Positions 3,701-50,517 of a DNA stretch of 64,000 bases are shown piece by piece. The translations under genes and the position numbers were made by a program. Source of the stretch: Tubulanus polymorphus (Eukaryota > Animalia > Nemertea). Numbering within the stretch: position 1 is the stretch's first letter; every line of letters begins with the position of its first letter. The stretch lies in the NCBI RefSeq assembly GCF_964204645.1, contig NC_134030.1, positions 21,536,210-21,600,209 of the forward strand, written 5' to 3'. The notes beneath the pieces were generated by a model, which ran no database searches, was not told the origin of the DNA, and saw only the letters and a program-made list of their open reading frames with translations.

Positions 3701-4928
3701 GATACACCGCACCATGGTGTATACGCATTATAGTGGTACGTCCGTTATTCAACACACTAGGGTGGAATTTTTCAAAATTTTCAAATCATCTACAGCACTA
3801 TAGGGTATTGATTAGTCAGCACTGAAAGGGTTAAAGGGTTTTCTACTAAATGTAAAACATGAACATCTCTTGATGAAAATAGATGTAAAACATGAACAGG
3901 GTTTTTAATAGATCTCAATAATTTCGATTTTTTAAAACCTTTTCGATCCTGTGATTGTTGGACTTATATTCTATTCGTCTCTCGCGATTCATTGCGTAGT
4001 TTTACCACATGAAAATCTCTATATAACCGTATGTAGATGTTCTACAGTTTGACTACTGTTTTAATTGTCACTATGTCCATGGTTCCCACAGTTATATGAA
4101 TTCAAAATTCCCAAGTATTTCATGGGTAATTTTTCAATTTTCCCAAAAGGAAATGAACACATATCATCATGCTACAGTCAACATTTTAGCGGTGACTGGT
4201 TGATAAAGGTGATTTTCAAGGGAAATCGCTGAAGAACGCCGCCCTTGCCAAATGCGATATGTGAAATGCAATGAATTTCCCAAGTATTTCCCTGATTTGA
4301 GGAAAACTTTTCAAATTCCCAAATATTTCCAAACCGGGAATTATTATTTCAAAATTCCCGAGTTTTTCCCAATTTCCCTGTTCTGTGGGAACCATGCTAA
4401 GTCAGTGATTCACTGGTTAACTTTATTTAACCAGTTTTAAATAAGTAGTTAACCACAGTTTTGATTTTCACTCAAATTTCGATCGCCGAAACCGGACTTA
4501 CCGGTGACTTGCTCAACATTTGAATTCCGTTTCGTAGACTTCCGTATTTGGTCTTGACGACGGTGTCCGCCTGTACGGCCGTGTCCAGGATGCCTTTGTA
4601 TTTGGCGATCTCGGCGCGTAGCGTCTCCGTCAGTTTCTCAGACGCCGTACGCGTCCATCGCTCTTTAAACTGCGTTCTCAACTGCTGGTCCGACGTCTGT
4701 TCGTCGTCTAAAAGTCGGAAACACTAAAAAAAGTAGAAATCAGGCACCGTTTTGAAATACTGGTTTATTTTTGTTCCAGAATTGTCGATTCAAAGCTATG
4801 CTTTTTTATATTTTCCCCTCTGATAAATTATGTCAACTTATACTTAATTTAAGCAAAAACATGATAATTTATGAATTGTATATTATTTGTTATAGATTGC
4901 TATAATTTTCAGAAAATAAATAAATAAA

Positions 4929-4996
<68 letters not shown>

Positions 4997-7900: not shown

Positions 7901-10900
7901 TTCATTGTGGAATTCAAAATTACCTTTGAAATTGTTGCAAAGCGGAGCCGTCAACGGTAGAGGCTTCGCGATCGGCGCCTTGCCGATCGGGGACAGTGTT
8001 TTCACACCGGGAACGATGTCGTGGTAGATGAAATCGTTGTCTTTCTTGACGGTTTGTAACTGTCGGTTCATTCGATCTTTATCGTCGGTGAATTTAAACG
8101 TGTTTCCGGCGCGTGTTTCGGCCGCCTGCATCAACTCACACGCGTGCTGCAAATATTCATACACATACATCAACACTTCATATATCAGTCATTCCTGGAT
8201 ATAAGGAATTTCAACAGGGTCCCTACAGATATCAGTCATTCCTGGATATAAGGAGTTTTAACAGGGTCCCTACAGATATCAGTCATTCCTGGATATAAGG
8301 AGTTTTAACAGGGTCCCTACAGATATCAGTCATTCCGGGATATAAGCAGTTTTAACAGGGTCCCTACAGATATCAGTCATTCCTGGATATAATGAGTTTT
8401 AACAGGGTCCCTACAGATATCAGTCATTCCTGGATATAAGGAGTTTTAACAGGGTCCCTACATATATCAGTCATTCCTGGATATAAGGAGTTTTAACAGG
8501 GTCCCTACAGATATCAGTCACTCCTGGATATAAGGAGTTTTAACAGGGTCCCTACAGATATCAGTCATTCCTGGATATAAGGAGTTTTAACAGGGTCCCT
8601 ACAGATATCTGTCATTCCTGGATATAAGCAGTTTTAACAGGGTCCCTACAGATATCAGTCATTCCTGGATATAAGCAGTTTTAACAGGGTCCCTACAGAT
8701 ATCAGTCATTCCTGGATATAAGCAGTTTTAACAGGGTCCCTACAGATATCAGTCATTCCTGGATATAAGCAGTTTTAACAGGGTCCCTACAGATATCAGT
8801 CACTCCTGGATATAAGGAGTTTTAACAGGGTCCCTACAGATATCTGTCATTCCTGGATATAAGCAGTTTTAACAGGGTCCCTACAGATATCAGTCATTCC
8901 TGGATATAAGCAGTTTTAACAGGGTCCCTACAGATATCAGTCACTCCTGGATATAAGGAGTTTTAACAGGGTCCCTACAGATATCTGTCATTCCTGGATA
9001 TAAGCAGTTTTAACAGGGTCCCTACAGATATCAGTCATTCCTGGATATAAGGAGTTTTAACAGGGTCCCTACAGATATCAGTCATTCCTGGATATAAGGA
9101 GTTGACAACTGTACAACTACAAACTAGATAAAAATTTCTAATTGCTTATTTCTCATAAATGAAAGATTTTTATAAAGGAGTTTTAAGGCATTTTACTCAA
9201 ATTGAAGGAGTTTCAAGCACATTTAAAAGCATTTTCTGTTTAGGAGGAATGAAGCAGTCGTAGGGACTCTGATCATTTCAATCTGAACTTAGAACTCTCG
9301 AACAGTGCAAACATCGAAACAGTTTTTCTCATAATTTTCCGGATTTGTCGTACTTTTACGCGTTAATTCAAAATAGAATAAGCAGTTACTGATCACAATC
9401 TGGACAGTTGCCCGGGCTATAATGATACCTGTAACCTGGCGATCTGTTCTCCGAATGCTTTCTTCTCACCGGCGACCTGCGCCTGGTGATACTCGGCGAG
9501 ACTGTGAAACGCCGCTTGACGTCCGGCCACAAACCCAGTCCAATCCTACAAATCAACGAAACACATATCAGCATCATTTAACCCTTTCAGCGTGGAGCGG
9601 CATATAAATCCGCCCAAAAACCCTATATCGCGTCCACCACCCCGTGCGACGTATTTATGTTATCAGTTATTAATTAAATCAGTAATTAAATCTAGTGAAT
9701 GATGGCAGCACCTGTTAACCATTATGAAATATAACTAACAATGCACAGCACTGCAGGGTAGACACATTATTAGCAATATGCCCGTTAAACACCGCACCTG
9801 GGGGGATTTTCCAAAAAAATATTGATGCATGTTGCATATTGATGCAGGCTGCACTGCGAGGTAGAGATGATGTATAGATGTATGTATGTCATACATCGCA
9901 CTGGGGTGAAATTTTACTTACTCGTGGCCACATATCTTTGATTGAGTTTAACTGTAGTAGCGTCAATGCCTCCGAGTACAGGTCACTGCATTGCTGAGCA
10001 ACTTTAGCAATTATAGCATCTTTCATACGATCTGCACAGAAATATAACAACGTACTTTAGTAGCCCGGTCACTGAGCAGAGGGGGAGATACGGGGAAAGT
10101 AGAGATGACGGAAAGGAAAGGGAGAGAGAGGATATGACAAGGGAAGAGAGAGGGGAGGGAGGGGGTAGAGAGAGGGGGAAGTGAGGTCGATGACAGGGAG
10201 TAGAAGCGGAAGCGTTTATGCAATACCTTTTCTCGCTTTTCTGAAGAAACAATCCTGAGCTTGTGCAACCATGAGAGCGCTGAGCGCAGATAGAGCGTCC
10301 GGACTCAGATCAGGAGTCGGATCTTGTTGTACGTGAGACAAAACACAGTCCTTTAAATGGCTGAATATTCCACTGGCATTCTAAAAAAACAACCACAATC
10401 ACCCGGTATCAGATTAACTGAAATTACAACACAACTATTGACAACATCTTTCACTGAAGGGTCTACAGATGTTATAGGGGGATTTATGGAGGCAGACATT
10501 TTTTCAACAAAGTCAACATTTTTTCAACATAGACAAATTGATGATGTCATAGGGGGTTCTTTGAAAGCAGACATCTTTTTTCGCTGGAAGTATCTATCAA
10601 ATCATTCTAGTAGAAGTTCTATGGAGGCAGCCATCTTGTCTGGAAGTATTGTGGACAATTTGACCGACGTCATGGAGGGATTCTAGGAAAACGTTTGATC
10701 TAGTAGACTCTCTTTCCGATGAATACAGGTCCCTACAGATCAGCCATTCCCGAGGGACCTTGAGTGGGTATATTTGATGACGTCTTAGAGAAGAAACCAT
10801 CTTTCCGAATCCAGTGTGTTTTGAATTATATTTAACAAACCTGGAAATATTTAGCAGACGCCTTCAGCCCGTCGTCGCTGTCATGATTCTGGTTCTCTGC

Positions 10901-13090
10901 TAACTGTGACTGCAGGGCCGCGATGTTGAATAGAACGCAAACTTTCTCGTACGTACCAGACGCGATCGCTATCAGAATAGAAAACAATAACTCTTCATTC
11001 AACAACATCAGGCTACTGCGGCGATAGAGGATCCACTTGTAGCAATTGAGGATCCACCAGGTGTCACTAGAGTGCAGTAGGACATCAACTACTGCGGCAA
11101 TAGAGGATTCCACTTGTGGCAAGTGAGGATCCACCAGGTGTCACTAGAGTGCAGTAGGACATCAACTACTGCAGCAATAGAGGATTCATCTTGTGGCAAG
11201 TGGGGATCCACCAGGTGTCACTAGAGTGCAGTAGGAAATCAACTACTGCGTCAATAGAGGATTCCACTTGTGGCTAAAGATTCACCAGGTGTCGCTAGTG
11301 TGCAGTAGGACATCAACTACTACGACAATAGAGAAATCCACCTGTGGCAAGTGAGGATCCACCAGGTGTCATTAGAGTGCAGTAGGACATCAACTACAGC
11401 GGCAATAGAGGATCAACTTATGGCAAGTTAGGATCCACCAGGTGTCGCTAATGAACTTACATAAACTCTTTTTGCCTCCGAAGATAGAATCTTTACCGAA
11501 CGCTGAATACCACTTGAAATTGATGCGAATCTGAAAAGAAATTAAAAACTCATCACTGAGGAAAAATGAGTTTTTCCATAGCCTCAAATTTTCGCTGGGA
11601 TAATAATTTCACGAACCTGGTTTTCGGCGATGGGCAGCTTTGACTCGATGGCCGCCAGTTGGTCATAATAGCTGGAATAAAATTACAGATGAAATGCAAG
11701 AATTTTAGGGTATTTCTCCCTTTAAAAAGGAATTCCAGAATTTTAGGGGCTATAGGAACCATGAGTGATCTGATTATTGATCGAACCATTTACAAGAACT
11801 AATAACTACTCTGTCAGTAGTAGGGTCGGAGGTTAATTCAATTGTTTATTGATCATTTTGTTAAAAGGGAATGTTAAACATATCAGATTTCCAAATTCAT
11901 TAAAGTTACAAATTTTTAAAATAAGAAAATACAACTTATAAAACATATATACGTAATCTATAATTATACGGTTATCTATTAAGCCTTAACTTTATTTAAA
12001 AAATCAAGACAGTAATAAAACATTGTATCAGTGACTCATGATAATAAGCACAAAAATGTGAGTTTGACTCACACACAGGACATCACAGAACTGTAATTAG
12101 TAGGTAACCTGCCTGCTGTATTGTAAAAATTATAATCTATACAGAGCAGATTATCGTTTCTTAGTATCTTAAACTCTAATACCGGGCCCTGTCAGTAGTC
12201 TGACCTGAGCACAGGCACTTGAATATGGGCTTTGATAATGGATAAATATTTGATAATTTACCAGCGATACGTTAATCCTACTTTAATAGATCCGCCATGT
12301 TTTAAAATAAATTTACCCATTGTGCAACGCGCGCCGGTCGTTTAGCTATACTATACAGAAAGGCTGGAAACGATCCTATCTCCGTCATGCTTAAATCTAC
12401 CCGCAGTTATCGGGACAGCCGAACACTGCCGATGATTGCCGAAGTACGTCCTTAGTGTCAATTTTAATCCTGAAATATAGGAGCGCCCATGATTTCAATT
12501 GTAGATGATTTTTTTGGAAACATTGACACTGTTTTAGCTCCATTAAAGATTTTAAATGGCAACAAAATTGATTTTTGAAAATTCGCGATGCCTCTTCGGG
12601 ATTGCTGTGACGTCATCTGTCCCGATAACTGCGGGTAGATTTAAGCATGACGGAGATAGGATCGTTTCCAGCCTTTCTGTATAGTATAGCTAAACGACGG
12701 CCGCGCGTTGCATCATGGGTAAATTTATTATAAAACATGGCGGATCTATTAAAGTAGGATTAACGTATCGCTGGTAAATTATCAAATATTTATCCATTAT
12801 CAAAGCCCATATTCAAGTGCCTGTGACCTGAGCCAGAGAAAAGTGAAGGATGGAGCGTGAAGGAAAAAAAAAAGAACTGACCGATTCAAAACGTCTAAAG
12901 TTGACTCGTGTTTATCGGCTAATTTATTGATCACTTGACTCCTCAGTTTGTTGAATTCAACTAAACTCTGTTCGTAATTCTCGGCGGCGACGTTCGCGAA
13001 CGTTGTCGTGATAAATTTCTGAAGCGGTTTCGCGAAATCTACTTCGATCGTCGATTTCGCTGGAACTGACAAATAAACTGCGGCCGCCAT
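772..13090 (-). CDS. PDCD6IP: ALIX / programmed cell death 6-interacting protein (Bro1, V and start of proline-rich domain); 16 exons in window, 3' end continues beyond the left edge
   Basis: Exons with GT-AG ends and consistent phases: 13090-12882, 11671-11617, 11530-11461, 10968-10841, 10380-10227, 10031-9922, 9545-9429, 8146-7924, 6876-6753, 5644-5464, 4723-4502, 3446-3287, 2775-2627, 2012-1878, 1505-1328, 915-772 (~786 codons). ALIX-type motifs: [71 protein letters not shown], and Pro-rich PARPPPPA. Confidence 0.96.
2269..2598. mobile_element. MITE with TIR CATGGTTCCC(G/A)CAG and TSD ATTGTG
   Basis: Inverted termini and a duplicated flank. A near-identical copy lies at 4078-4396. Confidence 0.85.
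3550..3830. mobile_element. piggyBac-like MITE (CCCTTTCAGTGC...GCACTGAAAGGG)
   Basis: TIRs present with TTAA on the right flank. Related copies at 5821-6100 and, partially, 1576-1770 and 9580-9910. Confidence 0.75.
4078..4396. mobile_element. Second copy of the CATGGTTCCC MITE (flanks CTATGTC/CTAAGTC)
   Basis: High similarity to 2269-2598, with TIRs CATGGTTCCCACAG...CTGTGGGAACCATG. Confidence 0.85.
4929..5003 (+). repeat. (TAA)n microsatellite
   Basis: Read directly. Confidence 0.95.
5821..6100. mobile_element. piggyBac-like MITE inserted at a TTAA inside another MITE (host ~5746-6133)
   Basis: TTAA is duplicated at 5817-5820 and 6101-6104. An uninterrupted host element is visible at 61320-61430. 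Confidence 0.85.
6178..6248 (+). mobile_element. tRNA-derived SINE head or tRNA pseudogene
   Basis: A-box-like TGGCATGGTGG and B-box GGTTCGAATCC at tRNA spacing, but no good acceptor stem. Confidence 0.5.
6968..7705 (+). repeat. Tandem repeat, ~7 x 106 bp, in ALIX intron 8
   Basis: ATAAGATATCCTCAGTGAGG recurs at 6985, 7091, 7194, 7300, 7406, 7512 and 7618. Confidence 0.95.
8182..9271 (+). repeat. Tandem repeat, ~20 x 47 bp, formed from a MITE terminus and followed by the MITE body
   Basis: Unit ATATCAGTCATTCCTGGATATAAGGAGTTTTAACAGGGTCCCTACAG runs to ~9102. The body then ends GTAGGGACTCTG, the inverse of CAGGGTCCCTAC. Confidence 0.9.
11020..11450 (+). repeat. Tandem repeat, ~6 x 76 bp, in ALIX intron 3
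   Basis: CCACCAGGTGTCACTAGAGTGCAGTAGGACATCAACTAC recurs about every 76 nt. Confidence 0.92.
12210..12825. mobile_element. Non-autonomous DNA transposon with ~205-bp TIRs in ALIX intron 1
   Basis: 12210-12418 is the reverse complement of 12617-12825. The flank (G)ACCTGAG(C) is duplicated, giving a 7- or 9-bp TSD depending on the end chosen. Confidence 0.9.
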
Positions 13091-13425
13091 TTTGACGACT
13101 ATTGATCATGTGACCAATTCAATTCAAAACGGCGGGTTTCGCTAAACGCCGTCGGTGGAATTTAGTTATAAAAAACCGGAAACGGCTTAATCTCGTCCAG
13201 CGCCATTACTCGCTCCCCTATGCTTGCTATCAATTGAATACTTCACGTGCGAGTTGACTCTACTGACCCGTGGTCCGCAGTATATATACAAGAAGATCAA
13301 GATCAAGACCGCTTGCCCTTCTCCGATATCTCTCGCGGGGGCAATCTACACGAGACGTAATTTCCTTAAGGCGTCATTTTATCGCGTAGTCAAATTAAAT
13401 TTAATTTTAGGCAAAATACGGTTTT

Positions 13426-13684
13426 CGGCAGAAATCCCACAATGACGAAGCCAAGATTGAAAAATTCTATATCAGAATGATTATATTTGGGGAGCGACGT
13501 TTCGGCTAACACCTGTTAGCCATCATCAGGCGTACTGGAAAGTACTCAGTACGCCTGATGTTAGCCGAAACGTCGCTCCTCAAATATAATCATTCTGATA
13601 TAGAATTTTTCAATCTTGGCTTCGTTATTGTGAGATTTCTCTCGTCAATATCATACACGGATATTGTGTATCTTCTCGTCTTAG
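13426..13684. mobile_element. Palindromic Penelope-like miniature element with TSD TACGGTTTT
   Basis: Inverted arms span 13430-13640. TACGGTTTT occurs at 13417-13425 and 13685-13693. A hammerhead core is present on the minus strand. Confidence 0.7.
13494..13531 (-). ncRNA. Minimal type I hammerhead ribozyme motif
   Basis: Minus strand reads gc-CUGAUGA-u-GGCUAAC(aggu)GUUAGCC-GAAA-C-GUC-gc, with a perfect 7-bp stem II and palindromic ACGU in place of stem III. Confidence 0.6.
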
Positions 13685-14601
13685 TACGGTTTTTATCTTG
13701 TCATAATCAAATTTGATTTGGTCTAAATTTTTGAATTTAACACGGCATCAAATTCACTAATCGATTTGTCAATCAACCCAGGAGGTGATTTGATACGATT
13801 TGAATATGGTGAACTGAAACCCATTCATAGGAAATGATATTTCAAAATGCGGGGCTCGAGTTTGTCCCGTTTGGAAGTCGTCAAATTCATCCTGATGTGC
13901 AAATCTTATTACACGTGACTGGCAAATTATAGGCGAATTTATCTTATCAAATCAGATTTGATTTCCTAATCATAATTTGCTAGTCACGGGGAATCTAATC
14001 AAATAAGATTTGCACATCAGGATGAATTTGACGCCTTGTTCCAAACGGCTGACTAGAAAATACTGTCCCACTTTTTAAAAAATCATTTCCTATGAATGAG
14101 TTTCAGGTTTCTCTTTCCGTTTTGACATTTATATCGGTTTTTCGAAAGAAAGCTGTGAGTCTTCCATCTTCAAATCGTATCAAATCACCCGGCCTCCGGG
14201 GGGTGATTGGATGATTTGACAAATCGATTTGAATTTGATACCGTGTTAAATTAAACAATTAGACCCAATCAAATTTGATTATGACAAGATAAAAACGATT
14301 TTTCTTAAAATCAAACTTGATTTGACAAGATAAATTCGTCTTTAAATTGCAGATTCTCTCTGTACAGATATCACACCGGTCGAACGGCTGCACCCGGAGC
14401 GGTCCTCGGAGTCATGCCAAAGACTGGCGAAGGAGCAGTCCCGACTCACGCAATCGATAATCCCGGCCCGTTTGAGGACAGCAGCAGCAAGAATGGATAA
14501 TAATGGTTTCGCAAAGATCTAATTTTTGTTTAAATTTTGTGAGTTTTTATTTTACTACATCGATTACAAGTGAAATAACGACCGGATTTTCGAATTTGAT
14601 T

Positions 14602-16651
14602 CTACTCTTCGTTAACTATGTCACCAAGATTATCAACTTGATTTTTCAAAGATTCTTTTACTGCGTTAACTTCTTCTTTTAGATGTTTGATTTCTTGCTC
14701 TGGATTCATTTCTGCTCCTTGTTGTTCTTCGAATTTCTCTAATTCCGCTGCTACTCCTTCAACCACTTGTTCTTCCTCCTGAAAACAGTAACAGTAACAG
14801 TAACAGTAACAGTAACAGTAACAGTAACAGTAACAGTAACAGTAACAGTAACAGCAACAGTAACAGTAACAGTAACATTAAGTGATGGACCGCTTTGGCG
14901 ATCTTAACACTGTTTAACGATACACAGTTGTTAGATTTTAAAGTTAATGCACATTTGCCGAGGTATCATTAGCGTCTGTATAGTTTGTAGTTAGTTTTTA
15001 GTTCATAATCTTTCCAATAATCGTCCAGCCGAGCCTTGAACGAATTCACAGATGGTGCTTCCACAACTTCTGTCGGCGGACTGTTCCAGTAATTGATAAT
15101 TCTATTCTCTATATCGGTGTGCTTTAGAAAGTTACGTAATTAAAACAGGTATTAAGAGTATAAAGACCAAACAGACCGAACGACCAAACATTTTGTTTCA
15201 CCCTCAGATTGTTTGTTTACTTAAGAGTCATCATCCAATGACTTCGTGCCACCAGCTATCCCGCTAGATGGCGTGCGTAATGTTAGTTTTTAACTGAAAC
15301 TGAAACTGAATTTAACTTTAATTGAAATTTATTTTTGTAACGGGGCCACACGGAGAGACTGAAACAGTCTATCTAAGTCGTTATCACCCAGAAGCATCCA
15401 CACCACATTCATCGCACTCACACATCATGCACACAAGTAATTAACAGGCGAAAAGAAACAACAACAAAAAATGTTTCACATATTACACATTAACATAGGT
15501 TTGTATAGAATGGAAATTTACAAAGTGTTGAATAATGATTTAATGTAGGTACGCTTAAAGGCAGGTTCGCTTTGAATAGTTCGAATTGATTCTGATAGAG
15601 TATTCCATAATAGGGGACCGAATATTTTGACAGAAGATTTTCTAGTTACAGTTCTAAGATAAGGCAATCTTAATTTACATCTATTACGCGTAGGTTTATT
15701 ATGAATTTGATAATTGAAGTTCCAATAGTTGTTAAAGGTCCTAGGCAATTTTGAATTGACGAATTTATGCAAAAAATAGCTAGTTGCAGTTTGTTAATAT
15801 TCTTAATTCTTAGTATATTCCTATAAAATATACGAGGCAAAATGTGTGAATATTTTCCCAGGGGTGGATTTAGGAGGTAGTCTCGGGGTCCGGACCCGGT
15901 TGCCTTCCCACTGCGGTTACCCTTTATTCTACAAGACAAAGATTAGCGTTAAAACCTACAAATTTCACATGTCGTCCCATCAGAATTTGCATATTTTAGA
16001 ACGTGTTCCTTCAGAAATATCCAATACCGAGGGCGGTACCCTGATCGCGGCCTTTGACATGGCCGCTTATCGGAAAAATGGCATTTCTTGTCTTCTGGAT
16101 TCCCAGCTTTCAATCTCCCTAGATTCACCCCTGTTTCCACTTTATGCCCCTATGGCCTACAAAAGGTGCCCTTTTCCCGTGCACCCCCCCCCCCCCACCC
16201 CGATTCAGACACTAGATTACTTACCGGGACCGTCTGTTCAACCTCTTTCCTGTTTGCTTGTTTTTTGCCCTTTTTGTCATTTGCCTTTCCTCCTTTTTTC
16301 TTTCCTTTCTTTGCCTCGACGTTCATGAAAACATCCAAACACACCAATACAACAACAAATACGGCAAATAATTTCAATCTGAAAGAAATCGTAGAAAAAA
16401 AGAAGAATTGTATATTTTCCACTCGCAAGGTTTTCAGTCTGACCCGAGACAGAACTGACATTTCTGTCATCAAGAAAATCGCGACAACAGCTAAACCGCG
16501 TTGTCTTGAAAGAACATTCGCTATTGGCTACTGCTCAGTTTACTAACCAGTTGCCACGACTTACTTTTTAACGAGTACAAATTGAGGAATTTACAATCTT
16601 GAATCTAAGATTTGAGATCGCAGAATGTCGGAACGAAACTTACCCGTTCAT
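14602..16651 (-). CDS. Novel small secreted protein, paralogue 1 (112 aa: signal peptide, Lys-rich block, acidic block, predicted coiled-coil C-terminus)
   Basis: Exons 16651-16644 (ATGAACGG|gtaagt), 16378-16225 (ttcag|...CCG|gtaagt) and 14778-14602 (tttcag|GAG...TAG) splice in frame: MNGLKLFAVFVVVLVCLDVFMNVEA-KKGKKKGGKANDKKGKKQANRKEVEQTVP-EEEQVVEGVAAELEKFEEQQGAEMNPEQEIKHLKEEVNAVKESLKNQVDNLGDIVNEE. TATA box at 16758-16765 and AATAAA at 14547-14552. Confidence 0.8.
14785..15110 (-). mobile_element. CR1-type LINE 3' fragment with (TTACTG)n tail
   Basis: Minus strand translates NRIINYWNSPPTEVVEAPSVNSFKARLDDYW, typical of the CR1 ORF2 C-terminus. A 3' UTR and ~15 TTACTG units (14785-14877) follow. 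Confidence 0.8.
15295..15850 (-). mobile_element. LINE (CR1/L2 group) ORF2 C-terminal fragment and 3' UTR, frameshifted
   Basis: LRIKNINKLQLAIF / HKFVNSKLP..F..YW..N..IH...TR....L.LP..RT......GP.LWNTL...IR.....FK is the usual end of RT-LINE ORF2. A short TTCAGT tail follows. Confidence 0.75.
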
Positions 16652-16724
16652 TTTGACAAATAGATTTCTGCGAACTGCTGCGAGTCTTGAAAGTCTTGGA
16701 AGTCTTGTGTCGAGTCTCTGTTTG

Positions 16725-16783
16725 GAGATTGATGATCTTTCCTACAAATCAGATCAGTTTTTATACCGAAATCCTCCAATCAG
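16725..16783 (-). promoter_or_regulatory. Core promoter of secreted-protein paralogue 1 (mirror copy)
   Basis: Reverse-complement copy of 19671-19730, with the TATA box at 16758-16765. Confidence 0.6.
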
Positions 16784-16929
16784 TGGCCCACCATCTGCAG
16801 AGAGACACGCAGACAGTAACCCCCGTGTGACAGAGTTCAAATACATCACAAATACATCACGTTCACACGTTCATAACAAAAATCCACTTATTGATAGAAT
16901 AAGCCATAAGTTTCTGAAATAATGCTGAC

Positions 16930-18000
16930 AAAATGTCTAATGTCTTGAACAAACGTGAAGCGTAGACGATCAGTTTTTGAAAGTGCGCTGATAAAATGTC
17001 TAATGTCTGGTGTTTGTAGTTCATTTTCAATTGAAAATGTCTCGGGTGAAGCACTGAACACATGTGAAGTGTGGACGATCAGTTTTTGAAAGTGTGCTGA
17101 TAAAATGTCTAATGTCTGGTGTTTGTAGTTCATTTTCAATTAAAAATGTCTCGGGTGAAGCACTGAACACATGTGAAGTGTGGACGATCAGTTTTTGAGA
17201 GTGTGCTGATAAAATGTCTAATGTCTGGTGTTTGTAGTTCATTTTCAATTAAAAATGTCTCAGGTGAAGCACTGAACACATGTGAAGTGTGGACGATCAG
17301 TTTTTGAAAGTGCGCTGATAAAATGTCTAATGTCTGGTGTTTGTAGTTCATTTTCAATTAGAAATGTCTCAAGTGAAGCACTGAACACATGTGAAGTGTT
17401 GACGATCAGTTTTTGAAAGTGTGCTGGTAAAATGTCTAATGTCTGGTGTTTGTAGTTCATTTTCAATTAGAAATGTCTCAAGTGAAGCACTGAACACATG
17501 TGAAGTGTTGACGATCAGTTTTTGAAAGTGTGCTGGTAAAATGTCTAATGTCTGGTGTTTGTAGTTCATGTCCAATTAAAAATGTCTCAAGTGAAGCACT
17601 GAACACATGTGAAGTGTTGACGATCAGTTTTTGAAAGTGTGCTGATAAAATGTCTAATGTCTGGTGTTTGTAGTTCATTTTCAATTAAAAATGTCTCAGG
17701 TGAAGCACTGAACACATGTGAAGTGTGGACGATCAGTTTTTGAAAGTGTGCTGATAAAATGTCTAATGTCTGGTGTTTGTAGTTCATTTTCAATTCATTC
17801 AAATATACACAATTTTCCACATTTTTATCAGGCAATAACATGGGTGAGGAGGCCGCTTGGAGATTCTTTTTTAAAGGGTACGACCGGTATTCGAAATGGC
17901 TTCACTCAAAATGTCGCCAGGGTAGGCTAATTCTGTCAGTTGTCTCAATGCATGTAGATTTGCAAGGTCGTCTTTCAAAAACAGAGAATCACAAATCCTA
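16930..18000 (-). repeat. 109-bp tandem array (~8 copies) plus its conserved ~200-bp 5' flank
   Basis: Unit TTGAAAATGAACTACAAACACCAGACATTAGACATTTTATCAGC...GAGACATTTTTAA. The flank 17790-17998 matches 49415-49615 in reverse. Confidence 0.93.
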
Positions 18001-18494
18001 AGAGCACGAAATGTACTATGAGCCTAAGTCTTTTGCTACGCTATAAGCCTACATTTTAGTTTACATTTATTCTGGAGACTTCTGCTGTCCTTGAACTGGT
18101 GAAATCATCGATTTCGTGAGTCGGGACTGCTCCGGCATCCTCTGGCTGCGGGGAAGGCTCCTTTGAGTTTAGTTTAGACCTCGTAACACCCCCTCCCGCC
18201 CCAGTCATAGTAACGAAATAAAATGTCAAACAGCAATGAATTCGATATTTGAAAAGCGAATATGAATCCTCTGACAAGTGGCTCGCGTTTACCAGCTGTC
18301 CGCCCGTTCGGTCCAACGACTGGTGATTTTCCACCGATTTCATTTCTAACTTATGAACTGTCAACACAATCGCCAGATGTAAAAGTCAAATCAATAGTAC
18401 ATTTTAACCACGGTTCATTGAATTCCATCTTGTAGGATGATGGTAATTCTTACTTTTTAATGAGTACTCTTTTTTACTATTTTATTACCATTTA

Positions 18495-19530
18495 ATCAAA
18501 ACTGATCGTCCACACTTCACATGTGTTTAGAACTTCACCTGAGACATTTTTAATTGAAAATGAACTACAAACACCAGACATTAGACATTTTATCAGCACA
18601 CTCTCAAAAACTGATCGTACACACTTCACATGTGATCAGTGCTTCACCTAAGACATTTCTAATTGAAAATGAACTACAAACACCAGACATTAGACATTTT
18701 ATCAGCACACTCTCAAAAACTGATCGTCCACATTTCACATGTGTTCAGTGCTTCACCTGAGACATTTTTAATTGAAAATGAACTACAAACACCAGATATT
18801 AGACATTTTATCAGCACACTTTCAAAAACTGATCGTCCACACTTCACATGTGTTCAGTGCTTCACCTGAGACATTTTTAATTGAAAATGAACTACAAACA
18901 CCAGATATTAGACATTTTATCAGCACACTCTCAAAAACTGATCGTCCACACTTCACATGTGTTCAGTGCTTCACTTGAGACATTTTTAATTGGAAATGAA
19001 CTACAAACACCAGACATTAGACATTTTATCAGCACACTTTCAAAAACTGATCGTCCACACTTCACATGTGTTCAGTGCTTCACTTGAGACATTTTTAATT
19101 GAAAATGAACTACAAACACCAGACATTAGACATTTTATCAGCACACTTTCAAAAACTGATCGTCCACACTTCACATGTGTTCAGTGCTTCACCTGAGACA
19201 TTTTTAATTGAAAATGAAATACAAACACCAGACATTAGACATTTTATCAGCACACTTTCAAAAACTGATCGTCCACACTTCACATGTGTTCAGTGCTTCA
19301 CTTGAGACATTTTTAATTGAAAATGAAATACAAACACCAGACATTAGACATTTTATCAGCACACTTTCAAAAACTGATCGTCCACACTTCACATGTGTTC
19401 AGCGCTTCACTTGAGACATTTTTAATTGGAAATGAACTACAAACACCAGATATTAGACATTTTATCAGCACACTTTCAAAAACTGATCGTCTACGCTTCA
19501 CGTGTGTTCAAGACATTAGACATTTTGTCA
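18495..19530 (+). repeat. 109-bp tandem array (~9 copies)
   Basis: ORF starts step by exactly 109 nt (18554, 18663, ... 19317). Confidence 0.95.
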
Positions 19531-19670
19531 GCATTATTTCAGAAACTTATGGCTTATTCTATCAATAATTGGATTTTTGTTATGAACGTGTGAACGAGTT
19601 AATTGTGATGTATTTGAACTCTGTCACGCAGGGGTTACTGTCTGCGTGTCTCTCTGCAGATGGTGGGCCA

Positions 19671-19730
19671 CTGATTGGAGGATTTCGGTATAAAAACTGA
19701 TCTGATTTGTAGGAAAGATCATCAATCTCC
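19671..19730 (+). promoter_or_regulatory. Core promoter of secreted-protein paralogue 2 (inverted CCAAT box, TATA box, Inr-like site)
   Basis: ATTGG at 19674-19678, TATAAAAA at 19689-19696 and TCAATC about 30 nt downstream. The ATG lies about 80 nt further on. Confidence 0.6.
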
Positions 19731-19802
19731 AAACAGAGACTCGACACAAGACTTCCAAGACTTTCAAGACTCGCAGCAGTTCGCAGAAATCTATTTATCA
19801 AA

Positions 19803-21775
19803 ATGAACGGGTAAGTTTCGTTCCGACATTCTGCGATCTCAAATCTTAGATTCAAGATTGTAAATTCCTCAATTTGTACTCGTTAAAAAGTAAGTCGTGG
19901 CAACTGGTAAGTAAACTGAGCAGTAGCCAATAGCGAATGTTCTTTCAAGACAACGCGGTTTAGCTGCTGTCGCGATTTTCTTGATGACAGAAATGTCAGT
20001 TCTGTCTCGGGTCAGACTGAAAACCTTGCGAGTGGAAAATATACAATTCTTCTTTTTTTCTACGATTTCTTTCAGATTGAAATTATTTGCCGTATTTGTT
20101 GTTGTATTGGTGTGTTTGGATGTTTTCATGAACGTCGAGGCAAAGAAAGGAAAGAAAAAAGGAGGAAAGGCAAATGACAAAAAGGGCAAAAAACAAGCAA
20201 ACAGGAAAGAGGTTGACCAGACGGTCCCGGTAAGTAATCTAGTGTCTGAATCGGGGTGGGGGGGGGGGGGTGCACGGAAAAAGGCTCTTGTTGGTCATTA
20301 AAGGGCGCCATAAAGTGGGGCAACAAACTCTGGGGGCTCTCCCGAGAAAATTTTGGATTTTTAATGCGATTTTATTGCATTTTGAGCACTTCTCCGAGCA
20401 TTTAACTTTAATCTGCAAACAAAAATGGAAAGGATAACATGAAAAAAGGATTAAGGAATCTTTAGGGCACCCCCTGCACCCCCTTGAATCCGCCCTTGAA
20501 CCTGAAGGCTTGATCTGAAAACAGTCTTACAGTCGCGAGATTTTAGCTAAACTTTAAACCCAGTTCCACATGAGTGGGTCTTATTTGACTGTAGATCCAG
20601 TTCCACATTTGTGAGGGTTTAATTTGACTGTTGATCCAGTTCTACATTTGGGCGGGTTTAATTTGACTCTGAACCAAGTTCCACATGAGTGGGCCTTATT
20701 TGACTGTGGATCCAGTTCCACATTTGTGAGGGTTTAATTTGACTGTTGACCAGTTCCACATTTGGGCGGGTTTAATTTGACTCTGAACCAAGTTCCACAT
20801 GAGTGGGCCTTATTTGACTGTGGATCCAGTTCCACATTTGTGAGGGTTTAATTTGACTGACGACCAGTTCCACATTTGGGCGGGTTTAATTTGACGCTAA
20901 ACCGAGTTCCACATGAGTGGGTCTTATTTGACTGTGGATCCAGTTCCACATTTGTGAGGGTTTAATTTGACTGTTGATCCAGTTCCACATTTGGGCGGGT
21001 TTAATTTGACTCTAAACCCAATTCCACACGAGTGGGTCTTATTTGACTGTGAATCCAGTTCCACATCTGTGAGGGTTTAAATTGACTGTTGATCCAGTTC
21101 CACATTTGGGCGGGTTTAATTTGACACTGAACCCCGTTTTGAATAGTATGGGTTAAACTTGAGTCTGGATCCAGTTCCACAGTTAGGTTGGTTGATTCCA
21201 CTCTGAAACCAGTTTTACAGTTGTGTGGGTTTAATTTTAATGTGTGGGTTTAATTTGTGGAATTTACGAGAAAGTAAAATGTCAAGTCTATAAAAGGACT
21301 TGTTCGGACGTTGCGCTTTTTCAAAGCGGTAATCGCCGAGTTCTGTAGAAAAATGAAGGTCCCCAACTGGACCGGTTTAGGCGGATTAATCTACTGTAAT
21401 ACACGTCAAAAAATTATACGATAAAAATGGAAAATATTCATTTTCATTTTGTATCGTCCATAGGAGATAGAACCAGAAGTGGTCGAGGAAGAACCAGCAG
21501 TGGTCGAGGAAGAACCAGCAGTGGTCGAGGAAGAACCAGCAGTGGTCGACGAAGAACCAGAAGTGGTCGAGGAAGAACCAGCAGTGGTCGACGGAGAACC
21601 AGCAATGGTCGAGGAAGAACCAGCAATGGTCGACGATGCACCAGGATCAGAACCAGAATTAGAAGAAGGATCAGAAATCGTCGAAGATGAGTCGGATGTC
21701 GTTCAACTAGAAGACGTTAAAGGCGCTTTGGAAGAGCAAGTTGAAAATCTTGATGGTATAATCAACAAACATTAA
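19803..21775 (+). CDS. Novel small secreted protein, paralogue 2 (157 aa: signal peptide, Lys-rich block, (VVEEEPA)n acidic repeat, predicted coiled-coil C-terminus)
   Basis: Exons 19803-19810, 20076-20229 and 21464-21775 splice in frame. The first 54 aa match paralogue 1 except one E/D change. They are followed by EIEPE, about 7 VVEEEPA-type units, and ...LEDVKGALEEQVENLDGIINKH*. TATAAAAA at 19689-19696 and AATAAA at 21824-21829. Confidence 0.82.
20559..21190 (+). repeat. Minisatellite of ~38-bp monomers arranged as a three-monomer (~114 bp) higher-order repeat
   Basis: CCAGTTCCACAT is followed cyclically by GAGTGGG-, TTGTGAGGG- and TTGGGCGGG- variants. Confidence 0.85.
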
Positions 21776-22926
21776 ATCAAATCGAATATGCGGTCGTTTT
21801 TTCATTTGTAATCGATGAAGTGAAATAAAACTGAAAACGAATAAAAAACCAAAATCTAGATCTATTTTTGTGAAATCATTACTTGATTTATTCTGGAGAC
21901 TTCTGCTGCTGCTCCGGCATCCTCCGGCTGCGGGGAAGGCTCCTTTGAGTTTCGAATTCAGTCACAGGGAGAAAAAAAAACAAATAAACAGCAAATTCAA
22001 ATTTACAATTTTTCAACAAGCGCAATATAAAAAGTGGCAGAGAAAGAAAAGCTTCCGTATCGACCGAACAACTTGAGGCTGCTGTCGCAATGAGGCAAAA
22101 GATCCGCCGGCGAAGGAAACCGGGAAGGAACCTAGGGAATGAAATGAGAATTCAAAAAATATCGTAAATTTAAGTGGAGTATACTTAAGTTATTTAGCCA
22201 AGTTCAGAAGAATGAGGAAATATAACAATTAGGGTTGATTTTTCATTGATGGATAGTACTAACCGGGCGGAGGGTAAGCCCGGGTCACGTGAGCCTGTCA
22301 GTCTCGATAAGAAAAGGTGAGTTTTTGCCAGATGAACGTTTTGAGGTGAATTTTGATGCGGGTTGGGCGGTACTTGTATTGAAAATAAAGAATATGCGTC
22401 TTCTAATTAGAATGTTTTTTAATGTTGGCGAATCGAGACCGGCCTCGGGTTCGGCGAGCCGACCGCATGAAGTGTCCGGTTCGCAGCCATTCCACAAACC
22501 GGACCGTTGGTCCGACCCTTGGTCCGAATATTCAGCCTCAGACAGGCTAAATAGGAAAAGGCAAAATAAAATGATAGAAATTAAAACACATTTACAATAA
22601 ACTTTTTGCTTTATACATTAGTTGCATATTACTTTGCGTTCGACTTTAGATCCGTTAGGCTCGTACACCGGACCAACAGTCCGCGTCTATGTCCGCACTG
22701 ATCTGTGTTTCTGCCGTTCGTCGTTCGAAGTTTTGCAGAGAAATATAGATAGCTTTTTTGTCGACGGATTAACAAAATAAAGGAATATGTGTCGAAAGTG
22801 AATGTAAAGCGCGTATGCAATGGAGACGCACATTTGATTTCGGAAGCTCCCTTATATATTTACACTGATTTGGAGGAGCAGATTCCTAGCGAGGTGAGGC
22901 TCCAGCAGCAGCAGCAGCGGGGTACG

Positions 22927-23350: not shown

Positions 23351-23524
23351 GGGTAGGGGTGGTGTGGTTCAGTCAACCGACCCAACCCCGATGAGTACCC
23401 AACTTCTCACAGGAGGGAAGGGTATAGCAGGCAAATAATTTTATGCGCTAATAAATAATCCGATTTAAATATTTTTTTTGTTCTTTTTCAATCCGATGAT
23501 GCCAGAGAAAGAGATAAGAGGGAG

Positions 23525-24472
23525 ATGATGCCATCATCCGCGGACGAAACTACAACAACGCCGCCTAGCGACGACCGACCGAAACCGATTCCCGCTAAAC
23601 GGATACGTTTCCCCCGCGGCGACGACGAACCGAACGACCTTGACCTCGACGACGAGAATTCCGGTCGCGGATTGTTGTCGACCGATCGAATCATCAAAGT
23701 CGAAAATGACGACGACGACGAGGAGATACCGCCGCCTGTGCCGCCGCGTCGCGAGTCCAAATACAGTCCGGCGAAGCGTAAATCGCGTAATCGCGACGAC
23801 GGCGAGCTGGACGAGTTGACGAAGGAGTTGAACGCGAGTTTAACGGATGCCGGTAATCGCATCGTCACGATCACCGGCACAATTAAACGCGGATCGAAAC
23901 ACGGCCAGGCCGTCGAGGTGCAGCTAAAACTCAGCGAAACGGAGCTACGCCGTTTGTCGACGGTCGTCGCCGCCGATAACACTACCGCGCGTAACCGCCG
24001 GACTTACTGCGGACTCGGCGCCGGTATCCATATCTTGTTGTTATCGGCGCTGTGTTCGCCGGTGGCGTTCGTGATTTCGGCGGCGGTCGCGTTCTACACG
24101 GGTACGATGACCTGGTATAACTTCTATCTCTACTTCAGCGAGGAACGTTCGTTATGTCATAAGATCCTCGTCTGTCCGCTGTTGATTATTTTCTACCCGG
24201 CGTTGATCGTCGCGGCGGTCGTCGCGCTCGGCATCTACGGCGCCGTCGCGCAGGTCTCGTGGTTCTACGCGAGTTGGTCGCGCGAGATGCGCGATCCCGA
24301 GAAAGGTTTCTACGGCTGGCTGTGCGCGAAAATGAATCTCGGCGATTTGACGCCGTACGAAGTGGTCGTGCTGGACGAAGACGCAGCGGTGGCGCCGTCT
24401 GGTGTTAAACAGCGCGAACACGCCGTGCAGGAAATAGTCGATGAGGAGTCGGAGGAACAGTCCTCCGTTTAA
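23525..24472 (+). CDS. TMEM169: Transmembrane protein 169
   Basis: 315-aa GC-rich ORF. An acidic/disordered N-terminus is followed by ITGTIKRG..GQ.V.V.L.L.E.EL and hydrophobic GIHILLLSALCSP...FYTGTMTWYNFYLYFSEE...HKILVCPLLIIFYP...DPEKGFYGWLC...PYEVV, which matches TMEM169 as I recall it. A likely acceptor at 23504-23505 lies upstream. Confidence 0.88.
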   Translation: MMPSSADETTTTPPSDDRPKPIPAKRIRFPRGDDEPNDLDLDDENSGRGLLSTDRIIKVENDDDDEEIPPPVPPRRESKYSPAKRKSRNRDDGELDELTKELNASLTDAGNRIVTITGTIKRGSKHGQAVEVQLKLSETELRRLSTVVAADNTTARNRRTYCGLGAGIHILLLSALCSPVAFVISAAVAFYTGTMTWYNFYLYFSEERSLCHKILVCPLLIIFYPALIVAAVVALGIYGAVAQVSWFYASWSREMRDPEKGFYGWLCAKMNLGDLTPYEVVVLDEDAAVAPSGVKQREHAVQEIVDEESEEQSSV

Positions 24473-26236: not shown

Positions 26237-28201
26237 TAGACATCAGGAACGGATCCAAGGATAAGGTTCGAGGCCTTTAGATACTTTCTATGTCCTTTTT
26301 GATCGTTGTAAAACAATGACTGCGTCACGTTTGAAAATCTGTGTATGAGCTGCGAGATGCGATGTATTTTTTCGCATTTCCAAATACAGTAAAAGTCTTT
26401 TTAAAACAGCATTTTCTAAAGAAATGCCATTGTTAAGAACCAATGAAAAATATGGCACGATGATTACGTATTTGGCAGGGTGTAATAAAGAATGGTATTA
26501 TTTCTATTGAATTTTCTATTGAGTTAGATTGGCTGGCTGGCTGACTGGCTGGCTGGCTGGCTGATTAACAGTAGTGTTAAAAAGGATGGCCGCATTATAC
26601 CAAACATTGATTGTGTAAAACATGTCCTACCAGATTATGCAATGATTCCATATATGATAAGGCGGTGAATATTTATTACTTCATTCCAGAAAAGGCAACT
26701 CAAAAGGTTTATGAGGGTCTTGTACGAAGGTCCTCGATACCTCCCTCCCGACCCCTGGATCCGTGCCTGCAAACAACGCGTGTTTTTTGTTGTTGATTTG
26801 TTTATATGAACATTTGTTACGCTGTCAGCGTCGCTTTTCAATCGTGTGTTTTTTTATTTTGATCTGTCTCAAATTCTGAAATTCGGTTTTTCGGAAATGG
26901 CCAAAAGCGGCCGAACGTGCTAAAACTCGGAAGGGAGGGGGTCTGTTCCGCAGTCATGGCTGAAGTCACGAAGTGGTCTTGAATCTGAAGACTAGTCTTA
27001 AGTTTTTACATTAGCTTTAGAACTAAGATGTCTCTGTCTGATCTTAAGTCTAAGTCATAAGTGTAATGAGTTTAGACTGGTCTTAAGTTGTTAGATAGGT
27101 TATAGAACCAAAATGAGCTTTAACTGGTCTTAAGCTGTTAGATTGGTTATGGAATCAAATGAGCTTAGACTGTTTTTACGTTGTTAGACCGGTCTTAAAA
27201 CAAAGCCTTGATTGTGTCACTAACATCCTGCCTTTTCTTATTTTAAACTCCACCATAAAGTCACTTTTAACCGAAAAGTATTGATTTATTGATTGCGTGT
27301 TGTTTATGTTGTATTTTGTTGCTGTCTGGTTTTTTGTAGTATTGAAAATATGAATATTAATTATAGTGAAAAATAAAGGCAGAAGTTTTAATCGTAAGTG
27401 ATAAATTCTGTGTTCTTGGTTTTTCGCTTTGAACAGTTGTGAACATTTGGGGCTAATTTGGCGTCGGTTGACAGGCTGGAGGTCACAGTTAATGGAAGAC
27501 CTGTAGTTTGCGCTTTTTCATGATTTAACAAACTCTGCTTTGCCCCAGAATGCCATTTTGGTCACCGCGGCTATATTCACAAGACACATTTTTACAAACG
27601 CACAGAACAACTACTCGGTGTTCTTCTAATAGTTAATGGTTAACATGCACGACTTGCAAGCAGGGTTGGTTGAGCTTGGGTCAGGGTTATTAAAAGCAGC
27701 CGTTGGCGGTAGGGGGCTCGAATCCATGGTCGTGACATAAAAATTTAGAGAATGAAAACGTAACAAAATATATATACATCAACTATTTACAATACTATAT
27801 ATACTATTGGAGGGATCTGTATACATCTAAGCCGGTCTTAATGAATTTAGCTAATTGGACCGTTGGGTTTTTCAGAATATCAAGGTTATTAAAGGTATTC
27901 AAATTCAAATAGTTTTTGCGGGGTTCGTTAAGTATTTAAGGGTGCTAATATACGTAATATAGCGCTCCTAGCGTATATTTATAATACTAAGTAGTTCAGG
28001 TAACGAGTGTCCCATTGAAATAGATTATTTGATGAAATAGATAATTTGATTTTCGTTATCGTCATTGCTTTGAAGTGATGTGTTTAGATCAGAAAACATT
28101 AAGTCACCAATGCATGTTTGTGTTCGCTACAAACAGGTTTTATCGATTCTACATGAAAAGTTTCCACATTCTGATGAAAGTCACATTGATTGACAACTGT
28201 T

Positions 28202-31200
28202 TCAGCGAGTTCTCAAAACCCGTTTATTTCTAGCACGAATAGATTTAACATCAATAGTGAGGATGGTGTAAAGAAGTGGATTCAGTGACGAGTTGATCGG
28301 TAGGAAAAGTACCGCCAACCAAGCCGCCACTTGGTTCGGTATTTCTACTCGCAATACAGCGCAAAACTGAACGATGATTATCGGTAACCAGCAAAATAAA
28401 TTACACAGATTTATCACTAAACTCCTACGTGCCAGAATCAATTCGGTAGGATCAGCTCTACCCGAGCCGGACCTGCTTCCAGATACGAGTCTATACATCT
28501 GTGCATACGTCATCATTATTGTAGCAAGTACGACCGAGTTAAACGCGGCAAATATAGCGAATGAGTATTGCCAGGCGTGGACATTGATGGATAGTAAATT
28601 CATAGGTAAACAAACGCCAGTTGTGCCGTAAAAGTTATTTCCGAAATAAGTAGATGACGATAGCGGTAGCATTGAAATGATGCTTAAAATGATCCAACAT
28701 ATGCAACAAATACCGGATACAGATTTCAAAGATATAATTGGGCTTGCAGAAAATGGATTGACGATATTCGAGTATCTTTGACGGGTTAGAATGAGCAGAA
28801 AAGTCAAAGATCCCTCGCACGAAAGAGTCACTATAATCCCGGCGAGTCGACACAATGAACTATCTGTCCAACTTTCAGAATTTAAGAAATAAACACCTTT
28901 ATAGACGTAATCGGCTCCTGCGATCAGAAACAGATAAATCGACATCAGGAAATCACAGGAGGCAATATTAATGATGAGGATATCCGAAGATGTGTTACGT
29001 GATTCAGAGGTTGAAATTCGAAGTGCTTGAACGCGAATTAAAATGACAATTATGTTCGCAACAAAGCTGAATGAAGCGATCGCCCAAATGATTGCTCTAA
29101 GAACAGTGTTACCCATCAGGTCGGAACAAGATGAAAATTGGTCGGCTTTCGGGAGACACTGGTCAACATTCGGAACCATGCAACAAAATTTGTACGCGTC
29201 AGAAGCCAAAGAACTTAATAATGTAAGTCTGTCAAACACGGTTCTCACTACGGATATGACTTTCGAATTTTTGGTTAGATCCAGATTTCTAAGTTTCGTT
29301 AATCCAGAAAATGCGTCTGGTAAAATGTAATTGATTTTGTTATTGCTAATGTTTAACGACTTTAAAGCGGATAAACCATTGAACACATTTCCACCGAGTA
29401 ATGACAAAGAAAGTCCGTGAAGATCGAGATCGCTTAATGACTTTAAACCTTGAAAACTGTCTTCTTCTAAATAACTCACTGGATTCCCAAAAAGCAAGAG
29501 CATTTTCAAACTATACAAACCGGCGAATGTATTCGCGATCAATGATATTATGCGGTTATATGTAAGATCTAATGTATGTAGATTATGTAGGTTTAAGAAC
29601 GAGTTTGGAACAATATAAGACAAATTGTTACGTGAAATATTGAGGAGATGTAGATAGAGGTAAGAAGAAAACGTGGACTCATTGAATACAACTCGGTTTT
29701 CTGATAAAATCAGAACTCGAGTTGATGCCGAGAAAAGATCAGTAATTTCTACTAAACCAGCATCATCGCAATCAATTAGATGACCTTGACATTTACAATA
29801 CTCAGGACACGTGATGTTACAGTAAGACTCGTCATCAGTGGTACGTTTACAATTTATAACACCATCACAAACTTCAGATTGAGGTATACATCGGTTTTCC
29901 TGGCCACATTTGAACATGCCGGGACATGATAAAGTCTCGCAGTTTCGCTCGTCTTCTGAATTAGGACAATCTGATCGACCATCGCACACCTGTCCCATTG
30001 GTATACAGTAAGATGCTGGACATTTTACAGTACCAGCTGGACATTTGAAATCAGTACAACCTTGTATATGTTCGAGCCTTCTACATACCGGGTAACCAAT
30101 CGGCATCCTTTCTAAAATACATCTATGACCTCTAGCATAACAATGAGGAGAATCGAAAGAACATCTTTGTTCATCAGATTTCTTACATAAGTTTGTGAAG
30201 TTAGTCGTGCAGTAGTTCTCATCATTACAGTGAACTGTAGGATTCACTATAACATTCGATGTTAAAAGTTCATCTTCTTGGAGGCTTCCGCTACAATCTA
30301 CAACACCATCCCGATTCAATAGAGAACTGATACATTCACCGCTGTTACATAGAAACCCGTTGCAAAGTTGCGGACCACACTCCCGCTCGTCGGAGCCGTC
30401 CTTACAGTTAACGATTCCATCACATCGGTACGATCTATCCACACATTGACCACTAGTACAGCGGAATTGTTGGGGCAAACACGGGGGATGAAAACAGGAG
30501 TTCTCATCAGAACCATCCAAACAATCCTTAATGAAATCACAGAATCCACTTATTGATATAACTCGTCCATCTGAACAGTGGAACTGACTGTGTAAGTTTG
30601 AACCCGAACAATCGAGTTCATCTTCACCGTGTTGACAGTCGTTTCTGGTATCACATACGCGATGGTCGCTGATACATCTTTGATCATTACATTTAAACTG
30701 CCACGATTTACAACCGCTTATAGAAGCCAACTCTTCACCAGTTACATTATAGGAACATAGCACGGAATGAACGTTGTTTGTCCGATTATTCCACTGTTTT
30801 ATCGACCATCTCAACGACTCGATAAAAGTTATTCCATCCCTTGTCAAAACTGGTTCGATCACTTGAAACATTTTCCTAGCATCCATAGTCAGTATAGCGC
30901 CATATTGGTGTTTAAAACTGAACGCGTCAATTAATGCTTTTATTTCATTTTCCACGTGATTAGCTACAATGCCTATTTCAGCGTGAAGGTCACGACACAT
31001 TTTCGTAGCGCTTCGAATATCCAAACTTCGATTGTTGTTCCAATCTGTGAGCATTTGACAACATTTGCCGTCCACATTTTGCCAACCTCTTTTACAAGTC
31101 GAGTCATTGGTTGTATTGGAATTTAGAAAATTTTTATTTCCAGTTAGAAATACGATATCGTTATGAGTATCAGTTATTTCTAGGATAGTCGTTGTATTTT

Positions 31201-50142: not shown

Positions 50143-50517
50143 CTGCCAGAAATTACTTTAATCAATGCGCATTTTTTATCGATGCATTTTCCATTTAAAT
50201 ACATATATAGAAAATTAATCATGCTTGGAAAACACTGCGCTCACATTTCTGGATCCATCCCTGGTTACTATTTCATATACAATTTGAATTATCAATTTGT
50301 TAAAAACCACCGCCACAAATCTATCAATTTTATGATTTACATATCTCGAGAATTAATAAATACCGTATCTTAACCGATGATAATGAATGCTATAATCGAT
50401 ATAGGTTTAGTTAAGGGACAACATATGATTATCGTGGTATTTACAAACTTTGAATTTTGAATTTTTTGAATTGTGTTTTTTTCTATTTGATTTTATTTGT
50501 CTTGAGTAAATCATTTA

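Follow-up and report, generated by a model that had tools for sequence, protein, structure and literature searches.

A divergent pair of genes for predicted charge-block secretory proteins in the nemertean Tubulanus polymorphus, resembling myticalin precursors in layout but not in sequence

The closest described parallel to the locus analyzed here is the myticalin family of mussels. Myticalin genes have three exons, of which exon 2 encodes the signal, the cationic peptide, a dibasic site and the first residues of an anionic extension, and exon 3 carries the rest of the extension and the 3' untranslated region (UTR) (PMC5577615). The extensions are of low complexity and variable length, from 35 to 75 amino acids (aa) (PMC5577615, PMC12294457), and the synthetic mature peptides were mostly antibacterial (PMC5577615). 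Mytilin extensions show extreme divergence and were proposed to neutralise the mature peptide in granules (PMC7168163). Molluscidins demonstrate that a peptide with dibasic repeats can have antimicrobial activity without being amphipathic (PMC11767717), and proCART that an amphipathic helix in a pro-domain can serve as a granule-sorting signal (PMC3602189). We analyzed a stretch of 64,000 nucleotides (nt) from the palaeonemertean Tubulanus polymorphus (NC_134030.1), called the window below, in whose positions all coordinates are given. It holds two divergently transcribed genes, A (minus strand) and B (plus strand), with predicted products whose layout closely parallels that of the myticalins without sequence homology.

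A preliminary description of the window, based on its sequence and open reading frames (ORFs), had proposed A and B as two intact genes with an exon 1 that codes only 8 nt, and this model holds. All four proposed junctions are canonical (GT..AG), with good GTAAGT donors and pyrimidine-rich acceptors, and the open frames end at homologous stops. In gene A, the coding part of exon 1 (16644..16651, minus strand; the ATG and 5 nt, with the 5' UTR upstream) is joined to exon 2 (16225..16378) and to the coding part of exon 3 (14602..14778, stop TAG). The corresponding parts of gene B on the plus strand are 19803..19810, 20076..20229 and 21464..21775 (stop TAA). Intron 1 falls in codon 3 and is 265 nt long in both genes, while intron 2 is of phase 0 in both and measures 1446 nt in A and 1234 nt in B. 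Among the nearby splice-site combinations tested, a full frame came only from the proposed set and from one variant lacking one residue; the alternatives were rejected because they shift the frame or drop a residue. Both genes have a TATA-like box (TATAAAA; 16759..16765 on the minus strand for A, 19689..19695 on the plus strand for B) and AATAAA polyadenylation signals (14546..14551, minus strand, for A; two for B, at 21824 and 21840, within 21824..21845 on the plus strand), as had been described; of the CCAAT box there is only a weak match, a reverse ATTGG that starts 15 nt upstream of the TATA start.

The spliced gene A encodes 112 aa that are letter for letter the RefSeq protein XP_074653692.1 (LOC141907848, 'uncharacterized protein', Tubulanus polymorphus), which gives the gene A model independent support, of annotation-pipeline origin. 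Gene B splices to 157 aa. It was not found in the protein collection when searched via exon 2 (91-2000 aa), full-length A (61-196 aa) or the B tail (56-181 aa), and public protein sets appear to lack it. The exon 2 search returned the gene A protein and no other. The genes are thus hidden from an ORF track, as had been claimed, but gene A is not hidden from RefSeq. Overall, both gene structures predicted here are well supported and we regard them as real, with half of the pair already annotated. The sequencing run X4, guessed to be RNA, had no contigs on exons 1-2 or A exon 3, nor any on the adjacent ALIX-like gene, of which the first coding exon was used, and is uninformative either way. The stretches matched to the runs excluded tandem repeats and B exon 3 and did not span the exon 2-3 junctions.

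Exon 2 encodes a predicted signal peptide, a 22-residue Lys/Gly block with a charge of +11, an RK pair and the first seven residues of the acidic part; the single difference of B from A in this exon is E50D. Residues 6-17 form a hydrophobic core of about 12 residues, followed by a polar stretch ending VEA, and by hydropathy the N-terminus is consistent with a cleaved signal peptide, in line with the preliminary description. On an approximate biological hydrophobicity scale, the best 19-residue window scored +1.8 versus -3.9 for the 12-residue core, so a membrane anchor with a cytosolic tail is unlikely. The basic block contains no bulky hydrophobic residues (0/22), one Arg and no Pro; it shows no hydrophobic moment (p 0.93) and includes five KK pairs and one RK (46-47). 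Heparin-binding sites follow the consensus patterns XBBBXXBX and XBBXBX, and the block fits them once and twice, respectively. The remaining chain carries -15 over 65 aa in A and -41 over 110 aa in B, and the net charges of the mature proteins are -4 and -30. The claimed charge-block layout was confirmed against shuffled sequences, of which 4/1000 (A) and 0/1000 (B) reached the observed charge segregation (kappa 0.23 and 0.31). Both mature proteins are devoid of Tyr, Trp and Cys (no Cys past residue 25) and have 1-3 Ser.

In single-sequence AlphaFold2 models (pTM 0.23-0.28), the basic block of A is unstructured and helices are predicted at residues 56-76 and 80-110, both within exon 3, with pLDDT of 91-97 over 81-110; the only predicted structure in B exon 3 is a terminal helix at exon-3 residues 80-102. 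Heptad periodicity is seen in A 84-109 (p 0.0095); the B helix is only some three heptads long and of borderline amphipathicity (p 0.086). A homotrimer prediction for A 78-112 scored 0.04 versus a mark of 0.32, which is not evidence either way.

As had been suggested, the proteins belong to no recognised family; in the searches made here they are also lineage-restricted. A profile made from pieces of A and B matched only A among 1,835,955,588 representatives. Pfam searches with three exon pieces and the full protein gave nothing above the cut-off, only sub-threshold coiled-coil or signal-like scores, among them a Conotoxin score (E 0.03-0.09, below the cut-off) limited to the region from the signal peptide to the basic block. 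No match was found in PDB. In the Atlas, gene A had no usable feature match and generic long-helix structure matches only, and B exon 3 gave two leads at 0.76. A transposon or a known family was rejected on the Pfam and PDB results. Since nemerteans are presumably thinly represented in the collections, the range may be a genus or family rather than a species; the name T. polymorphus itself has been applied to two species (PMC11167275). Passages from three papers on nemertean toxins (PMC6410017, PMC9415933, PMC12846013) contain nothing like this protein, and PMC13565374 offered nothing further; supplements with nemertean transcriptomes or mucus proteomes, such as those of PMC9415933, may list the product. 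Among 17 of the 19 papers naming T. polymorphus, none concerned this protein by title or start of abstract (the LOC identifier was not a search term), and a literature search for a cysteine-free linear antimicrobial precursor in Nemertea turned up none.

The identity of the two N-terminal halves is not independent conservation: a near-identical inverted repeat, unnoticed in the preliminary description, underlies it. The arms (16137..17795 and 18661..20318) are 96.6% identical overall. Only 4/647 nt distinguish the copies over the stretch that starts in the proximal promoter and ends 48 nt into intron 2 (promoter 0/94, exon 1 1/86, intron 1 2/265, exon 2 1/154). Beyond it, A and B lack similarity over most of intron 2, and their homology in exon 3 and the 3' UTR is old. 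It follows that recent copying or homogenisation accounts for the signal peptide and basic block being the same in both proteins. Read from the sequence, the history is one of an old inverted duplication in which the inner halves, from promoter to exon 2, are near-identical, exon 3 has diverged and a 21-nt unit has expanded in B. The near-identity of the 5' halves was probably caused by gene conversion or by a recent replacement of one 5' half.

The DNA run X1 has one contig with a depth of 53.4 over 16253-16823 (exons 1-2), compared to 26.5-29.3 for single-copy stretches, and distinct A-type and B-type contigs upstream with depths of 29-30 (contig depth in X1 is not a copy number). An assembly artefact was rejected on these grounds. 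The sole site in exon 2 that distinguishes A from B is split 34.8 to 14.8 in X1, or about three copies to one; at the contig level this is no more than suggestive, but it would mean that the site is not a fixed paralogue difference, as expected under gene conversion. A minority haplotype contig (16168-16282, depth 14.8) carries the adjacent non-synonymous changes N45K and R46T together with one silent and one intron change, all grouped where the homogenised arm has its outer edge. In the DNA contigs, exons 1-2 had no third copy at 85% likeness, and paralogues elsewhere were sought only via these contigs at 80-85% likeness.

A 109-bp tandem array lies at the inner end of the left arm (16946..17795, 7.8 copies) and, inverted, at that of the right arm (18498..19510, 9.3 copies). 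The array is present at four sites of the window (16946-18001, 18498-19510, 49413-50143, 55943-56339), two of which have 210 nt of flank in common, and seems to belong to a dispersed element that has tandem repeats inside it. In the spacer, a 105-nt piece (18065..18170, plus strand) shares homology with the 3' flank of each gene, at 98-100% for B and 82% for A, and the A flank is single-copy in X1; the piece may be a remnant of a lost third copy.

Exon 3 encodes 58 aa in A and 103 aa in B. The acidic block of A, described earlier as non-repetitive, is not unrelated to that of B: it aligns with the last repeat units of B. The 21-nt coding minisatellite of B (21469..21644, plus strand; 8.4 copies of EEEPAVV type) seems to have expanded from a unit that occurs once near the start of A exon 3. 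The amphipathic tails encoded by the last 22 codons (14605..14670, minus strand, in A; 21707..21772, plus strand, in B) are indeed homologous, with 9/22 residues identical, a level matched in 19/100,000 shuffles, and so are the 3' UTRs. Over these codons dN is 0.42 and dS 0.52 (dN/dS about 0.8), and a smaller share of positions is kept in the coding tail than in the UTR (44/66 versus 50/60 nt, Fisher p 0.04). Nevertheless, all seven core positions stay hydrophobic in A and B (neutral null 0.054), and the second codon position is kept more often than the third (18/22 versus 12/22, p 0.10). Constraint on the tail helix face is thus likely but weakly supported. Over their initial 60 nt (14540-14601, 21776-21835), the 3' UTRs are 83% conserved, compared to 67% for the adjacent coding tail; this part could contain a regulatory element, or the difference could reflect fast protein evolution.

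By analogy with the myticalins, our favoured but tentative reading, which we put somewhat short of an even chance, is that A and B are precursors in which an acidic pro-piece masks a cationic peptide for surface defence. The predicted signal peptide would be followed by the polycation and by the acidic extension, which would mask it in storage; the Glu-rich part would neutralise the head (+11 versus -15 in A). The precursor may be directed into gland-cell granules with the aid of the terminal amphipathic helix, and cleavage near RK or unmasking in seawater would free the polycation, which could then attach to anionic surfaces, microbial or other, within the skin mucus. The exon partition of A and B is the same as in myticalin genes, and the divergence of exon 3 parallels that of the fast-diverging mytilin extensions. 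Granule sorting would explain the kept amphipathic tail, and the N-terminal core, unfavourable as a 19-residue membrane span, also counts for a precursor. The masked cationic peptide already suggested in the preliminary description has a close published analogue, although its processing site does not fit well: the junction is RK, while myticalins use KR and less often RR (PMC12294457), and the N45-R46 to K-T change in the minority haplotype removes the site. Several other observations weigh on the same side. The cationic block lacks a hydrophobic face, and cleavage could also occur at the five KK pairs inside it. It is identical in both copies, with no third copy among the DNA contigs, whereas mature myticalin peptides are hypervariable in multigene families. 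The B extension is far more acidic than neutralisation needs, the intact hydrophobic core of the tail would also suit a structural role, and myticalins were less active against a Vibrio at high salt (PMC5577615).

We consider it rather unlikely that A and B are instead uncleaved structural proteins of mucus or of a secreted tube. The Lys head would then attach to mineral surfaces or sulfated polysaccharides, with the acidic arm, which is short in A but long and proline-rich in B, serving as spacer or cation binder and the terminal helix gathering several chains into a multivalent cross-linker or coacervate. The fit of the basic block to the heparin-binding patterns, the charge segregation and the dispensability of the RK site in one haplotype all suit such a role, as do the last helix, which is the only structure common to A and B, its heptads in A and its intact core. 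A Tubulanus congener secretes cellophane-like tubes (PMC11167275), and tubeworm cement has lysine-rich proteins and sulfated polysaccharides (PMC6262867; lysine/sulfate chemistry also in PMC12817120). However, the amino acid composition leaves no room for the curing chemistry usual in glues, based on DOPA, phosphoserine and disulfides, B is strongly negative and kappa is modest, the B helix is short with borderline amphipathicity, and the dN/dS of the tail is high for an oligomer interface. For the same reasons of charge and composition, the self-coacervation and oligomerisation proposed in the preliminary description were not borne out. Its mineral-matrix role is unlikely, since we know of no mineralised parts in tubulanids. 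A more specific version, which we judge unlikely, would place A and B in a new class of uncleaved single-chain cross-linkers of mucus or tube, each with a polycationic head, an acidic arm that can be tuned and a helix for bundling, able to gel or coacervate in seawater without DOPA or phosphoserine, with palindrome conversion keeping one head on two arm lengths.

The most doubtful of the functional readings takes the products as internal secretory proteins that serve neither defence nor materials, whether granin-like or of another kind (granule matrix, neuroendocrine, gamete coat, apolipoprotein-like lipid binder). Granins are acidic, Glu-rich and helical with dibasic sites, and A likewise has two predicted acidic helices; gamete-surface proteins evolve fast within a narrow taxonomic range, which also suits this pair. 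But granins are much longer than A and B, and there is no Pfam score above the cut-off, no PDB match and no relative among 1.84 billion representatives. A separate question from function is whether gene A alone is functional and B is a chimeric decaying copy with exon 3 open by chance, which we find quite unlikely. B is absent in the three length-appropriate protein searches while A from the same species is present, the seven compared repeat units vary only non-synonymously, as in a neutral minisatellite, and a simulated 66-nt frame with 22 random substitutions is still open 49% of the time. On the other hand, B has canonical splice sites, a promoter near-identical to that of A, two AATAAA signals and an open exon of 103 codons to a homologous stop, and the preference for kept second codon positions and the intact hydrophobic core also speak for a working gene.

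The surroundings of the pair are diverse. On the minus strand, a multi-exon gene with a BRO1 domain (about 1100-13105), which is probably ALIX/PDCD6IP-like, begins some 1.4 kb past the gene A 3' end. Between them lie palindromic, very high-copy elements (13430-13680 and 13689-14350) that are similar to miniature inverted-repeat transposable elements (MITE-like), with a summed X1 depth of up to 63,000 versus 27 for single-copy sequence. A possible terminal exon on the plus strand (14368-14500), which has a good splice acceptor and is open over 43 codons, converges on the gene A 3' end; it had no Pfam match, and homology to it recurs at 18079-18133 and, to a lesser degree, near 21886-21952. Downstream of gene B we found a TMEM169 coding exon (23459-24472, plus strand, Pfam E 5.7e-52) and a tandem duplication on the minus strand (27737-35657 and 38463-46594, 93-97% identical) with very large open frames that code for CUB, C-type lectin, six LDLa, leucine-rich repeat (LRR) and seven-transmembrane (7TM) domains, which we take to resemble GRL101-type LGR receptors. 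Further along are a C-terminal homeodomain fragment (51112-51573, minus strand, Pfam E 0.004, below the cut-off), whose motif is presumably even-skipped-like, and the start of a rhodopsin-family G protein-coupled receptor (57965-58219, plus strand).

The locus is a palindrome that pairs one shared head with two divergent tails, and for now A and B, with their predicted signal peptide, are among many orphan secreted low-complexity proteins. If the defence reading is true, they would represent a cysteine-free linear antimicrobial precursor in Nemertea that has converged on the myticalin layout. Under the structural reading, they would be candidate components of the secreted tube and resemble engineered gel proteins with a polyelectrolyte and a coiled coil. 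A cross-linker would offer the first molecular handle on the cellophane-like tubulanid tube, on whose chemistry our literature searches found nothing. Cytotoxin A-III, parborlysin and the nemertides are disulfide-bonded, and A and B differ from them in having no cysteine framework. These nemertean toxins come from the same phylum and are likewise small secreted products (PMC6410017, PMC9415933), but none of them was returned by database searches with A and B. Tubeworm cement and mussel adhesives (PMC12817120, PMC6262867) are also secreted, lysine-rich and repetitive, with opposite charges for coacervation; in tubeworm cement, however, the charges are on separate molecules and not in one chain, and the DOPA or phosphate used by such adhesives contrasts with the absence of Tyr and the scarcity of Ser in A and B.

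Molluscidin (PMC11767717, PMC5577615) is another non-amphipathic, cysteine-free cationic peptide with dibasic repeats, but it has neither the signal peptide nor the anionic pro-region predicted in A and B. With mytilins (PMC7168163) the genes share the sharp switch from a cationic N-terminal part to a fast-diverging anionic C-terminal extension, although mytilins are cysteine-stabilised alpha-beta peptides encoded by four exons. Myticalins and modiocalins (PMC5577615, PMC12294457) come closest, with a tripartite precursor and three exons, of which exon 2 ends just past the dibasic site in A and B too. However, their intron 2 is of phase 1, the myticalin intron 1 precedes the ATG, and their processing site is KR or RR. 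In addition, myticalins are Arg-rich (over 10%), often Pro-rich, and belong to a large family with a hypervariable cationic part, whereas the Lys/Gly block is invariant in two copies. The database search, which returned the query alone (no direct pairwise comparison being made), gave no sequence match between them, and the extension of A and B ends in a predicted amphipathic helix. That A and B work like a myticalin-type masked cationic precursor thus remains a cautious proposal, and a function as a charge-block secretion protein is a fainter one. A and B fail four myticalin features and are not members of that family; in them a known architecture is combined with an orphan sequence.

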